4,389 bases of DNA from a virus. Its lineage: Duplodnaviria; Heunggongvirae; Uroviricota; Caudoviricetes. The DNA lies in the IMG/VR virus record IMGVR_UViG_2698536511_000007, one strand, 5' to 3'. A model generated the notes under the pieces. It did not search any database and was not told the origin of the DNA. It saw only the letters and a program-made list of their open reading frames with translations. Below are positions 3,027-3,530 of the stretch, one piece after another; the stretch's first letter is position 1, and every line of letters starts with the position of its first letter. Both the position numbers and the translations under genes were made by a program.

Positions 3027-3047
3027 TTTTATGGGGCACCTTTCTGA

Positions 3048-3077
3048 TTGATTTCATATTGGCGAGGTAAGTAGAAT
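3048..3077 (+). promoter_or_regulatory. Putative sigma70 promoter of hok mRNA (-35 TTGATT 3048-3053, 18-nt spacer, -10 TAGAAT 3072-3077)
   Basis: Hexamers read from the sequence. The predicted start near 3084-3086 (GGGTGCTTGAGGC) resembles the 5' end of the plasmid R1 hok mRNA as I recall it. Confidence 0.4.
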
Positions 3078-3139
3078 GACTGCGGGTGCTTGAGGCTATC
3101 TGCTTCAGGCATGAACACCAAAAGGCAGATAGAGAAAAG

Positions 3140-3205
3140 CCCCAGTTAACATTACGCGTCCGGCAAGACGCTTAACATTAATCTGAGGCCAATTTCATGC
3201 TTTGC
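3140..3205 (-). ncRNA. sok: Sok-like antisense RNA (approximate extent)
   Basis: Minus-strand promoter-like hexamers: -35 TTGCCT (complement of 3235-3240), 17-nt spacer, -10 TAACCT (complement of 3212-3217). These would start an antisense transcript across the SD/ATG at 3185-3199, the arrangement known for sok. The 3' end is not defined and no clean terminator was found. Confidence 0.3.
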
Positions 3206-3253
3206 ACATGTAGGTTAGCCTCTTACATGCCGAAAGGCAAGGAGAAGCAGGCT

Positions 3254-3409
3254 ATGAAGCAGCAAAAGGCGATGTTAATCGCCCTGATCGTCATCTGTTT
3301 AACCGTCATAGTGACGGCACTGGTAACGAGGAAAGACCTCTGTGAGGTACGAATCCGAACCGGCCAGACGGAGGTCGCTGTCTTCGTAGACTACGAATCC
3401 AGGAAGTAA
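3254..3409 (+). CDS. hok: Hok/Gef-family type I toxin (small membrane protein)
   Basis: ATG 3254 with AAGGAG 9 nt upstream. The product MKQQKAMLIALIVICLTVIVTALVTRKDLCEVRIRTGQTEVAVFVDYESRK has the Hok signature and is near-identical to E. coli HokD/RelF over most of its length as I recall it. An in-frame ATG at 3197 would give a 70-aa extended form. Confidence 0.85.
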   Translation: MKQQKAMLIALIVICLTVIVTALVTRKDLCEVRIRTGQTEVAVFVDYESRK

Positions 3410-3465
3410 GAGTGACCGGGCGGGGAGCTGATCCCATCCCCGCCCACCTCTGATGTGTCAGGCAT

Positions 3466-3480
3466 CCTCAACGCACCCGC
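3466..3480 (+). promoter_or_regulatory. fbi-like fold-back element in the hok 3' UTR, complementary to the mRNA 5' end (3082-3096)
   Basis: 3466-3480 CCTCAACGCACCCGC pairs with 3082-3095 GCGGGTGCTTGAGG over 14 bp with one bulged C (3472), checked base by base. Confidence 0.45.
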
Positions 3481-3484
3481 ACTT

Positions 3485-3530
3485 AACCCGCCCATCGCTG
3501 TGATCTCTCAGCGTTTCGGCGGGTTTTTTG
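3485..3530 (+). terminator. Rho-independent terminator of hok mRNA
   Basis: Outer stem AACCCGCC (3485-3492) / GGCGGGTT (3518-3525), inner stem CGCTG (3496-3500) / CAGCG (3509-3513), then a T6 run at 3524-3529 followed by GTTGTTTATTT. Confidence 0.6.

Follow-up and report, generated by a model that had tools for sequence, protein, structure and literature searches.

Identity of the cassette

In the genome annotation, the locus studied here appears as a toxin gene alone, listed as 'hokD', which raises the question of whether this gene stands by itself in a stretch of phage DNA or belongs to a complete hok/mok/sok type I toxin-antitoxin (TA) system, and what such a system might do there. The window (the whole 4,389-nt stretch of DNA analyzed) was compared with known hok loci, and the most probable reading, to which we give a probability of roughly 80%, is that positions 3048–3532 hold an intact hok/mok/sok type I TA cassette of the hokW/hokD subgroup, most likely with an R1-like mode of action. 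The mok reading frame, the antisense RNA Sok and the putative RNA switch were missed by the annotation. Beyond its correction, the importance of the finding is slight: this kind of cassette is already known, it is a textbook hok/mok/sok system, and its nearest relative has already been characterized.

A check of the sequence recovered every feature listed in the original prediction, each at its predicted position. The description of the locus as a complete hok/sok-type cassette with fold-back architecture was likewise upheld, with Pfam, Rfam and the comparison with phages 933W/Sp5 in agreement. The hok and mok reading frames and both Shine-Dalgarno (SD) sequences are undamaged, as are tac, the anti-SD box, fbi, the sok promoter and the Sok hairpin; all of them agree with the functional hokW locus (Table 1).

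Table 1. Coordinates of the cassette elements and of the insertion sequences at the ends of the window.
Feature	Position	Strand	Description and basis
IS600 copy end (transposase start)	1–124	−	Truncates the prophage replication gene; 100% match to IS3-like IS600 family transposase
hok/mok promoter	3048–3077	+	−35 TTGATT 3048–3053, 18-nt spacer, −10 TAGAAT 3072–3077; promoter scan
Full-length hok (mok-hok) mRNA, predicted	3084–3532	+	5′ end from Rfam RF01794 position 1 and R1-type homology; 3′ end from terminator T-run
tac element GGGUGCUUGAGG	3084–3095	+	mRNA 5′ end; pairs with 3466–3478 in the full-length minimum-energy fold
Sok antisense RNA, about 71 nt, predicted	3135–3205	−	9-nt single-stranded 5′ tail, long imperfect hairpin, U-run
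ucb / anti-SD box AAGCCCC	3137–3143	+	Pairs with mok SD in the full-length fold and with tac in the Rfam consensus structure
mok ORF, 70 codons, in frame with hok	3197–3409	+	ORF list; SD GAGG 3185–3188, 8 nt upstream
sok promoter	3212–3240	−	−35 TTGCCT (reverse complement of 3235–3240), 17-nt spacer, −10 TAACCT (reverse complement of 3212–3217)
hok toxin ORF, 51 aa	3254–3409	+	SD AAGGAG 3239–3244; Pfam HOK_GEF
GC-rich 3′ stem-loop, 9 bp	3418–3445	+	Perfect inverted repeat; in the minimum-energy fold
fbi element CCUCAACGCACCC	3466–3478	+	tac complement, one bulged C; RNAduplex −21.5 kcal/mol
Intrinsic terminator	3485–3532	+	Outer stem, inner stem and T-run 3524–3529; fold results
Second IS600 copy end	4292–4389	−	Truncates the NinB-like (DUF1367) gene; IS600 match; minus strand read by eye

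The assignment of the hok ORF to the Hok family, proposed from the letters alone, is confirmed by its match to Pfam HOK_GEF (81.1 bits, cutoff 22), which covers profile positions 1–42 of 42. The protein keeps the conserved residues C15, T17, L29, C30, E31 and E40 and also matches PHROG 251 'MokW-like host killing' (E = 1e-32). It corresponds to RefSeq WP_014532198.1, named HokD, the identical sequence being annotated as hokD in RefSeq, and shares 50 of its 51 residues with HokW, the sole change being E50 to R. Among the NCBIfam models, the generic Hok and the HokA ones matched solely below threshold (55 against a curated cut-off of 73 bits) and give no subfamily assignment.

The upstream SD and ATG that had been placed under an antisense promoter are present, and the reading frame left unnamed there is mok, an in-frame 70-codon extension of hok with the same architecture as the annotated mokW and mokC. 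Its GAGG is found in 48 and its ATG in 43 of 53 aligned loci, and both lie within the region complementary to Sok. By analogy, hok would be translated through mok by coupling.

Predicted promoter and ends of the hok mRNA

The weak plus-strand promoter was recovered by the promoter scan with 9 of 12 matches (two sites found against 0.7 expected). Moreover, 22 loci, of which several have unrelated DNA upstream, place a TAnnAT-type −10 box exactly 6 nt before the conserved GG(G/C)(U)GC 5′ end. Compared with the HannyBb/APEC O1 type of hok promoter, 10 bp (CGGTAGTTAA) are deleted between 3070 and 3071, whereby the usual TTGGCG −35 is displaced and TTGATT is brought into position. The mRNA is predicted to begin at 3084 and to end at the T-run of the terminator. 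Its 5′ leader (window 3084–3259, plus strand) matched Rfam RF01794 over model positions 1–157 of 157 with 117 bits (gathering score 59, E = 3.8e-27), and the folding energy of the full-length RNA is −191.5 kcal/mol, with z = −9.4 relative to shuffled sequences.

The tac-fbi clamp and a putative anti-SD switch

At the DNA level, 3082–3095 (GCGGGTGCTTGAGG) is complementary to 3466–3480 (CCTCAACGCACCCGC) over 14 bp with one bulged C, and pairing of the two ends had been put forward on this ground. Folding of the RNA places the tac-fbi helix in the minimum-energy structure. The pairing therefore stands, but not its 14-bp extent, since with a start at 3084 only 12 bp and the bulge lie inside the RNA. 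When the 3′ region was shuffled, 5 of 300 shuffles matched the complementarity as well, a modest result on its own; what makes tac-fbi convincing is its fixed position and its covariation across loci. Indeed, with three exceptions, the roughly 50 intact loci from three subfamilies have a tac complement 47–58 nt past the stop codon, with compensatory changes, so that the long-range complementarity is conserved in homologous loci. It was absent from the IS186-disrupted copies checked (K-12 hokC and hokE, L009 and L034). The tac element does not vary among 12 hokD/W-type loci, and between subfamilies it changes together with fbi. Over 53 aligned mRNAs, 84% of the tac-fbi helix is paired and one pair is fully compensated; the column pair 4/444 is C-G in 34 loci, U-A in 19 and unpaired in none. 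For the R1-type locus L016, RNAduplex first chose a spurious site at +180 or a split duplex, while the alignment gives the true fbi, CUGAAGCGCC, at about +52.

The second part of the putative switch is the anti-SD box. All 53 loci share its GCCCC (3139–3143), and the SD/anti-SD helix is paired in 94% of cells across the 53 aligned mRNAs. The unconstrained fold of the 3′-truncated mRNA gave a local 5′ hairpin in which the SD stays sequestered, and not the open, translatable form; constrained energies were therefore compared. In the full-length RNA, the closed form was 13.2 kcal/mol more stable than the open one. In comparison, in the RNA cut at the GC hairpin the open form came within 1.6 kcal/mol of the minimum. 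An open/closed switch is thus suggested by near-equal energies only.

3′ hairpin and terminator

The perfect 9-bp GC hairpin described after the stop codon was found as such, its arm GGGCGGGGA (3418–3426) pairing with TCCCCGCCC (3437–3445). Relatives keep a hairpin at this place with another sequence (GCGGGGGAG/CTCCCGC in 933W), and the stretch is the second most variable of the mRNA. By analogy, the stem-loop probably blocks 3′ exonucleases and would be the last stem-loop of the processed, active mRNA; in plasmid R1, mutations of the last stem-loop in truncated hok mRNA abolish toxicity (PMC9841398).

The terminator comprises an outer stem, AACCCGCC (3485–3492) with GGCGGGTT (3518–3525), and an inner stem, CGCTG (3496–3500) with CAGCG (3509–3513). 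Both stems of the "two-tier terminator" (3485–3530) are real, but they do not form a special element: this is the usual hokD hairpin with a 23-nt insertion in its loop. The common hokD-type form is AACCCGC-TTCG-GCGGGTT, and the AACCCGC-TTCG-GCGGGTTTTT terminator is found in K-12 hokD, HannyBb and most relatives, as opposed to the rare insertion at 3492–3514 seen here. Of 5,426 complete E. coli genomes, just 2 had the inserted variant; L019 and L020 have a version of it whose inner stem contains one mismatch. The promoter/terminator scanner did not find this terminator, the loop being longer than 8 nt, and folding and homology were used instead. The window carries a rare allele with three indels, in the promoter, the 3′ hairpin and the terminator loop, any of which could alter expression or processing.

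The predicted Sok antisense RNA

The coordinates of Sok were transferred by alignment from the annotated sokW of phage 933W. The predicted RNA folds at −30.2 kcal/mol (z = −4.9) into a 5′ tail, a hairpin and a U-run. A convergent minus-strand promoter running over the mok SD and ATG, as originally proposed, is corroborated by hexamers identical to those of 933W sokW and by a 17-nt spacer in 53 of 53 aligned loci, among which every −35 reads TTGnnn and 43 of the −10 boxes read TAnnCT. The −35 overlaps the hok SD on the opposite strand. The sok promoter fell below the threshold of the promoter scanner, its −10 TAACCT matching 3 of 6 positions, and homology was relied on. In the study of hokW, the mutagenic primer YO-421 changes the hexamer that equals the sokW −10, and the promoter-less construct, most likely built in this way, lost antitoxin activity (PMC8621323).

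The direct repeat TTAACATTA lies at 3146–3154 and 3172–3180, on both sides of GCGTC (3156–3160) and GACGC (3167–3171), which pair and form the tip of the Sok stem. The repeat and hairpin had been listed in the leader, correctly as to position, but they are not a separate element: the two repeats are the arms of the Sok terminator stem. As reverse complements of 3172–3180 and 3146–3154, the arms pair via two G·U wobbles in the antisense RNA only. A protein-binding or iteron-like element was considered for the repeats and rejected, as they are fully explained as Sok stem arms.

Comparison with characterized hok systems

The closest relative is hokW-mokW-sokW of the Stx2 phages 933W and VT2-Sakai (Sp5), the DNA between the −10 box and fbi (window 3064–3488; 417–425 nt) being about 92% identical. 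The two share mok of the same length and frame, identical tac, fbi and sok −35/−10 hexamers, and the same Sok hairpin, including its 18-nt tip extension. They differ in the −35 region of the hok promoter and in 6 of 18 bases of the target of the Sok 5′ tail; the 3′ hairpin loop is 7 nt longer in the window than in 933W, whose copy, unlike the window, has no recognizable terminator after fbi. Their settings also differ, the 933W/Sp5 cassette lying near attR and convergent with the late genes, whereas the one in the window lies in an early-right/nin-type region downstream of QueH. HokW is toxic and is neutralized by sokW from the same promoter, both RNAs being visible on northern blots, with RNase III and Hfq only partly required for sokW action (PMC8621323).

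Alignment to R1 hok/sok and to chromosomal hok loci, proposed as a check of the locus, gave the same gene order and regulatory logic as R1 and homology to hokD. The hokD (relF) of the K-12 Qin prophage occupies the same prophage slot, directly upstream of a rem homologue, and is homologous to the window from the hok SD (3239) onward through hok, the GC hairpin, fbi, the terminator and the rem promoter region. Its C-terminus reads TAYEPEE as opposed to VDYESRK in the window, and its terminator is without the 23-nt insertion. In K-12 hokD, relBE stands in place of tac, the anti-SD box, the mok start and sok, whereas the window has all of them and is therefore the intact form of that locus; K-12 hokD is a truncated version, and the window shows how the locus looks when intact.

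With hok/mok/sok (parB) of plasmid R1, whose mechanism is described in PMC9841398, the cassette shares gene order, the tac/fbi clamp, the anti-SD box, an in-frame mok, a convergent sok promoter with a 17-nt spacer, a GC hairpin after the stop codon and fbi about 50 nt past it, followed by a terminator. R1 Hok is about 41% identical to Hok of the window. The 5′ end differs (GGCGC against GGGUGC between the R1 type and the window), a change that is compensated in fbi, and in the R1-type leader the first hairpin is longer and the Sok hairpin shorter. The R1 system is plasmid-borne, and its post-segregational killing is proven.

The prophage remnant

The cassette was correctly placed between phage genes: QueH lies upstream, and a Rem homologue followed by the NinB-like gene downstream. 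Its description as carried by a prophage holds for the phage setting but needs amendment, as the prophage is a remnant, namely a lambdoid prophage cut by IS600 at both ends with its replication gene truncated and frameshifted. The IS600 end at 1–124 matches thousands of E. coli records, and homology to the intact prophage of FDAARGOS_943 begins only at about 125; identity between the window and FDAARGOS_943 extends to 4291, after which the two diverge. The NinB-like gene matches Pfam DUF1367 at profile positions 1–102 of 198 only. In the intact sister locus L002, the stretch that corresponds to the masked N-run matched no RNA family in an Rfam search.

No empty site, with QueH joined to the rem-type region without a cassette, was found among 5,426 E. 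coli genomes; both flanks were present in two FDAARGOS strains only, both with the cassette. The cassette is probably a mosaic insertion, as it occurs in such unrelated contexts as near attR in 933W, in the nin region of HannyBb, and on IncY, IncHI1B and other plasmids. The survival of the cassette in a prophage broken by IS600 fits the idea of modules that outlive their carriers.

Proposed mode of action and biological role

The R1-like mode of action is proposed from the identity of the elements, from predicted folds and their energies, and from conservation and covariation across loci, with the transcript ends, 3′ processing, RNase III cleavage, toxicity and Sok instability inferred by homology. 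The weak promoter would be constitutive and make an mRNA of roughly 450 nt, in which tac is clamped to fbi and GCCCC sequesters the mok SD; the clamp and the sequestration would render this RNA untranslatable and a poor target for Sok. Slow 3′ trimming to the GC hairpin would then remove fbi, after which tac could pair with the anti-SD box and free the mok ribosome-binding site. As long as the short-lived Sok is present, it would base-pair over the mok start codon and SD, leading to destruction of the duplex. Once its supply stops, mok would be translated, coupled translation of hok would follow, and the 51-aa Hok in the inner membrane would kill or arrest the cell.

A role as an addiction or phage-exclusion moron, as originally suggested, is not established. 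In the only close homologue tested, hokW-sokW, lysis was speeded and phage release doubled on induction, and neither prophage stabilization nor T4 exclusion was demonstrated (PMC8621323). For chromosomal hok loci, a preprint reports that post-segregational killing is not mediated (bioRxiv 10.1101/2025.08.07.668861). Most plausibly, the cassette persists as a selfish, self-stabilizing module in the IS600-truncated remnant. That it may incidentally trigger on transcription shut-off, for instance during phage infection, is speculation.

A dedicated anti-phage role by abortive infection, in which host transcription shut-off by a lytic phage depletes Sok and Hok kills the cell before progeny are released, is unlikely in our view. 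As cited in PMC8621323, R1 hok/sok reduced the plating efficiency of T4 by 42% and plaque size by about 85%, but this effect was modest and obtained on a high-copy plasmid, and the effect measured for hokW favored the resident phage and not defense against another. A preprint reports that hok genes are about fourfold enriched in prophages but not enriched near defense systems (bioRxiv 10.1101/2025.08.07.668861). The variable slot between QueH and the NinB-like gene does host other toxin genes, such as that for the Doc toxin in the APEC O1 prophage; against this, PADLOC gave no model match at E ≤ 0.01 for Hok or either neighboring protein.

Slightly less likely still is that the seemingly complete cassette is attenuated or silent, a relic like most chromosomal hok loci in a remnant prophage that has yet to lose it. 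The 10-bp promoter deletion displaces the −35 of close relatives, but the alternative TTGATT is available at 18-nt spacing; the 23-nt terminator-loop insertion is rare, yet the indels keep the stems of the structures that contain them. The surrounding prophage is decaying and sister copies are visibly dead, with a stop at hok codon 4 in APEC O1, hokC and hokE of K-12 disrupted by IS elements and K-12 hokD rearranged (PMC12214031); moreover, tests of post-segregational killing are reported to have failed for chromosomal loci (preprint, bioRxiv 10.1101/2025.08.07.668861). In the window, all reading frames and regulatory elements are intact and match the functional hokW locus, which argues against a relic.

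Finally, it is improbable that the cassette helps lysis of its own prophage, with loss of Sok upon induction leading to early membrane permeabilization by Hok and more phage release: the 92%-identical hokW-sokW of Sp5 advances lysis by about 40 min and doubles release with RecA-dependent HokW production (PMC8621323), and here the cassette is co-oriented with the early-right genes and transcription running on from the early promoter could perturb the convergent sok promoter, but this prophage cannot be productive, its replication initiator being cut by IS600 and frameshifted and its NinB-like gene cut by the second IS600, and the genomic position is unlike that in 933W/Sp5.

A variable patch in the Sok target

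A comparison of 12 close hokD/W-type loci shows that variation along the whole mRNA peaks in the 15 nt at 3190–3204, with a pairwise difference of 0.40 against a mean of 0.09, whereas tac, fbi, the Sok hairpin and the hok coding sequence hardly vary. The patch coincides exactly with the stretch that is complementary to the single-stranded 5′ tail of Sok, and it flanks the conserved mok ATG. E. coli genomes carry a median of 2 and up to 9 hok-type cassettes. We tentatively suggest, at odds clearly below even, that diversifying selection on the Sok-target patch keeps co-resident prophage and plasmid cassettes mutually orthogonal. If so, the Sok of no cassette could serve as an 'anti-addiction' antidote for another, and the rare triple-indel allele of the window would represent one more retuned variant. 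The hypervariable patch recognized by Sok offers a small, testable lead on cross-talk among cassettes sharing one cell.

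Reading frames and promoters

The cassette belongs to the hokW/hokD subgroup of hok/mok/sok type I toxin-antitoxin loci, and its features are compiled in the table. The ORF originally predicted to encode a Hok-family toxin was confirmed by a Pfam profile search (PF01848, 81 bits against a cutoff of 22). Its only difference from HokW is at residue 50 (R50 in the window, E50 in HokW). The annotated mokW of phages 933W and VT2-Sakai is an in-frame N-terminal extension of hokW, and the 70-codon ORF of the window matches it. Hok codon 47 (Tyr47, 3392-3395) is UAC in a UACG context. 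In hokC, hokD and hokE, low-level A-to-I editing of the equivalent codon by TadA is reported to put Cys in place of Tyr at the conserved position of the second cysteine (PMC12214031), and the window keeps the UACG motif.

Features of the hok/mok/sok cassette and its surroundings (window positions)
Feature	Position	Strand	Details
IS600 (IS3 family) end, left	1-124	- (transposase start)	truncates replication-initiator gene
Masked N-run	2123-2384		262 N
QueH (epoxyqueuosine reductase)	2391-3026	+	Pfam PF02677, 221 bits; PHROG 3217; directly upstream of cassette
hok promoter	3048-3077	+	TTGATT, 18 nt, TAGAAT; consensus scan
tac	3084-3095	+	mRNA 5' element
Anti-SD box (ucb)	3137-3143	+	core GCCCC
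Sok RNA	3205 to 3135	-	sokW annotation of 933W carried over by alignment
mok SD	3185-3188	+	GAGG
mok ORF	3197-3409	+	70 codons; GAGG 8 nt upstream
sok promoter	3235-3240 (-35), 3212-3217 (-10)	-	TTGCCT, 17 nt, TAACCT (reverse complements)
hok toxin ORF	3254-3409	+	51 codons; Hok/Gef, Pfam PF01848
GC hairpin	3418-3426 with 3437-3445	+	9 bp
fbi	3466-3478	+	3' UTR complement of tac
Two-tier terminator	3485-3525 plus T-run	+
Rem homologue	3659-3946	+	95 aa; PHROG 340 (unknown function)
IS600 (IS3 family) end, right	4292-4389	apparently as left end, read by eye	truncates NinB-like DUF1367 gene

The plus-strand promoter, first described as weak, was recovered by the consensus scan. The distance from a TAnnAT -10 to the conserved mRNA 5' end downstream of it is exactly 6 nt in 22 loci, several of them with unrelated upstream DNA, and this constancy supports the hok promoter as well as the start site. 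A 10-bp segment (CGGTAGTTAA) of the HannyBb/APEC O1 type is missing from the window between 3070 and 3071, so that the usual TTGGCG -35 is out of register and is replaced by TTGATT at 18-nt spacing. Both hexamers of the convergent minus-strand promoter are where they had been placed, though TTGCCT/TAACCT falls below detection by the scanner. A second promoter-like site (TTGATT, 16 nt, TAGAAT; 3550-3577), its hexamers identical to those of the hok promoter, lies just past the terminator, upstream of the Rem homologue. The hokD-rem intergenic region of the K-12 Qin prophage is conserved with the window from this -10 (ATAGAATC) through ACTTAAGTAGCGCGCAGGGA (3550-3577, 3578-3658), the conservation being weak in the -35 stretch.

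Fold of the hok mRNA and its conservation

The minimum-energy fold of RNA 3084-3532 (-191.5 kcal/mol, z = -9.4 against dinucleotide shuffles) includes the 5'-3' pairing, the GC hairpin and the terminator. The reported complementarity of 14 bp with one bulged C is present, GCGGGTGCTTGAGG (3082-3095) facing CCTCAACGCACCCGC (3466-3480), but only 12 of the 14 bp lie inside the RNA because the transcript most likely starts at 3084. The GC hairpin is exactly as predicted. So are the coordinates of the two-tier terminator, albeit this is an ordinary hokD-type hairpin: AACCCGC-TTCG-GCGGGTTTTT is the form in K-12 hokD, phage HannyBb and most relatives, and the window adds 23 nt (3492-3514) in its loop, forming an inner stem. 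This variant was found in 2 of 5,426 complete E. coli genomes; two hok loci of the genome collection, L019 and L020, also carry the inserted terminator, with one mismatch.

Conservation of the fold-back was examined in hok loci from phages, plasmids, K-12 and the genome collection (65 loci) by searching 15-140 nt past the stop codon for the segment that best complements the first 14 nt. Of about 50 intact loci, all except three have this segment 47-58 nt past the stop codon; the exceptions are R1-type loci, for which the search returned a split duplex, the fbi sequence still being present in the alignment. The paired sequences are GGGUGCUUGAGG with CCUCAA(C)GCACCC in hokD/W/C loci, GGGUGCCUGAGA with UCUCA(U)GGCACCC in hokB (two compensatory changes), and GGCGCUUGAGGC with GCCUGAAGCGCC or GCCGCAAGCGCC in R1-type loci. 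The complement was absent from the IS186-disrupted copies checked (K-12 hokC, K-12 hokE, L009 and L034).

The window's own fold was further scored on a MAFFT alignment of 53 distinct mRNAs, trimmed at a fixed distance past the stop codon. The tac-fbi helix was paired in 84% of cells, with one pair being C-G in 34 sequences, U-A in 19 and unpaired in none, and the helix of the anti-SD box (GCCCC, invariant) with the mok SD was 94% paired. None of the 500 shuffles and none of the slid controls reached the whole structure in paired cells or in covariation. Some of the margin over the slid controls is to be expected, as the structure comes from a sequence that is itself in the alignment; neither the compensated pair nor the fixed position depends on this. 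Judging from these alignments, the 5'-3' complementarity is conserved across hok loci, the point on which the original prediction had staked its validity.

Proposed mechanism

In R1, tac/fbi pairing keeps the full-length mRNA closed, and the anti-SD box holds the mok SD. Slow 3' trimming yields a truncated RNA, shielded from exonucleases by its last 3' stem-loop; here tac becomes the partner of the anti-SD box, which exposes the mok SD to ribosomes and Sok; the Sok duplex is cleaved by RNase III (PMC9841398). The window cassette would most likely follow this paradigm. In its full-length RNA the closed form is favoured over the open one by 13.2 kcal/mol; once the RNA is trimmed to the GC hairpin (3448), the open form lies within 1.6 kcal/mol of the minimum. 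These computed energies make a closed/open switch plausible. The unconstrained fold of the trimmed RNA is a local 5' hairpin, like the known metastable structure, rather than the open form. Overall, we consider the cassette an intact, working toxin-antitoxin system acting by the R1 mechanism, with a probability of about 0.8; that it is silent appears unlikely.

Sok RNA and its target

Rfam RF01794, which is named 'sok' yet models the hok mRNA leader targeted by Sok, matched 3084-3259 (+) over the full model length (117 bits against a gathering score of 59). In the predicted Sok fold (-30.2 kcal/mol, z = -4.9), 9 nt at the 5' end form a single-stranded tail, which is followed by a long hairpin and a U-run. 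The direct repeat TTAACATTA noted at 3146-3154 and 3172-3180 is exact, and in the modelled RNA its two copies make up the hairpin arms of Sok, where seven Watson-Crick pairs and two G.U pairs join UUAAUGUUA to UAAUGUUAA, with GCGUC/GACGC at the tip. The same helix is weaker in the hok mRNA because the G.U pairs turn into C.A mismatches in the sense strand. Among 12 close hokD/W-type loci, the mRNA varies most at 3188-3205 (peak 3190-3204), with a pairwise difference of 0.40 against a mean of 0.09; there is hardly any variation in tac, fbi, the Sok hairpin or the hok coding sequence. The peak coincides with the target of the single-stranded Sok 5' tail around the conserved mok ATG, and this patch may be a specificity (orthogonality) determinant between co-resident cassettes.

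Possible function

Positions 3064-3488 of the window are about 92% identical to 933W and VT2-Sakai in BLAST against phage genomes, the counterpart there being annotated as hokW, mokW and SokW antisense RNA. This hokW-sokW is the sole close homologue with functional data: Hok is toxic, Sok expressed from the window-type promoter neutralises it with a partial need for RNase III and Hfq, lysogens contain both RNAs, and on induction the locus brings lysis forward and doubles phage release (PMC8621323). Such a lysis-help role cannot apply to the window's prophage, since it is a defective remnant. R1 hok/sok is cited in the same paper (PMC8621323) for modest T4 exclusion at high copy number. Post-segregational killing assays failed for chromosomal hok loci, and hok is about fourfold enriched in prophages and not near defence systems (bioRxiv 10.1101/2025.08.07.668861). 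No PADLOC model exists for the cassette. An addiction or phage-exclusion role is possible; the ecological role of the cassette may be selfish persistence, abortive infection or lysis help.

Surroundings and state of the prophage

The plus-strand order (replication-initiator fragments, DnaC/IstB-like ATPase of the ydaV type, DUF977/Ren-like, N-run, QueH, cassette, Rem homologue, NinB-like DUF1367) is that of the early-right region of a Rac/Qin-type lambdoid prophage. Two IS600 ends bracket a 4.2-kb fragment, their outer ends lying outside the window, and homology to the intact prophage of E. coli FDAARGOS_943 starts at about 125 and ends at 4291. Compared with that prophage, the replication-initiator (O-like) gene (100-802) has A8 instead of A6 at 331-338 (a +2 frameshift), a 6-nt repeat gain and a 10-bp deletion near 470. 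The gene is split into ORFs 100-363 and 533-802 and is a pseudogene here, and the prophage is a remnant. In FDAARGOS_943, C4 antisense RNA and isrK Rfam matches occur in the immunity/ant-like region (99-287 of its extracted locus), upstream of the part covered by the window.

In the otherwise near-identical FDAARGOS_943 prophage, the stretch matching the N-run is 476 nt long and runs from the end of a hypothetical gene across an intergenic region into the start of QueH; Rfam gave no match in it. Either the mask is not length-preserving or the source genome has a 214-nt deletion. The true QueH start is probably at about 2361, inside the N-run. The QueH 3' end occurs in about 1,800 of the 5,426 E. 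coli genomes, in which an empty site, with QueH joined straight to the rem-type downstream region, was not found. The cassette occurs in unrelated contexts (near attR in 933W, in the nin region of HannyBb, on IncY, IncHI1B and other plasmids), its homology beginning at the promoter and stopping at fbi or the terminator; this distribution fits a self-contained mosaic 'moron' unit.

Closest relatives

Over 3030-3545, the window is matched at 100% identity by two E. coli chromosomes, FDAARGOS_943 and FDAARGOS_944 (RefSeq gene name hokD). K-12 Qin carries hokD-rem in the same slot. Since K-12 hokD shares sequence with the window only from the hok SD onward, with relBE in place of the leader, the window is, by sequence comparison, the intact form of that locus. 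The Rem homologue resembles K-12 Rem along most of its length, but has four inserted residues and a C-terminus that differs and is longer. The APEC O1 prophage has the same QueH-hok adjacency, its hok carrying a stop at codon 4 (CAA to TAA; L084 2954-3091). Further downstream, the same variable slot of that prophage contains a gene for a type II toxin of the Doc family. The family, subgroup, RNA architecture and prophage association are already known, and the identical sequence is in RefSeq, annotated for the toxin gene only; the allele-specific indels and the hypervariable Sok-recognition patch are minor leads.
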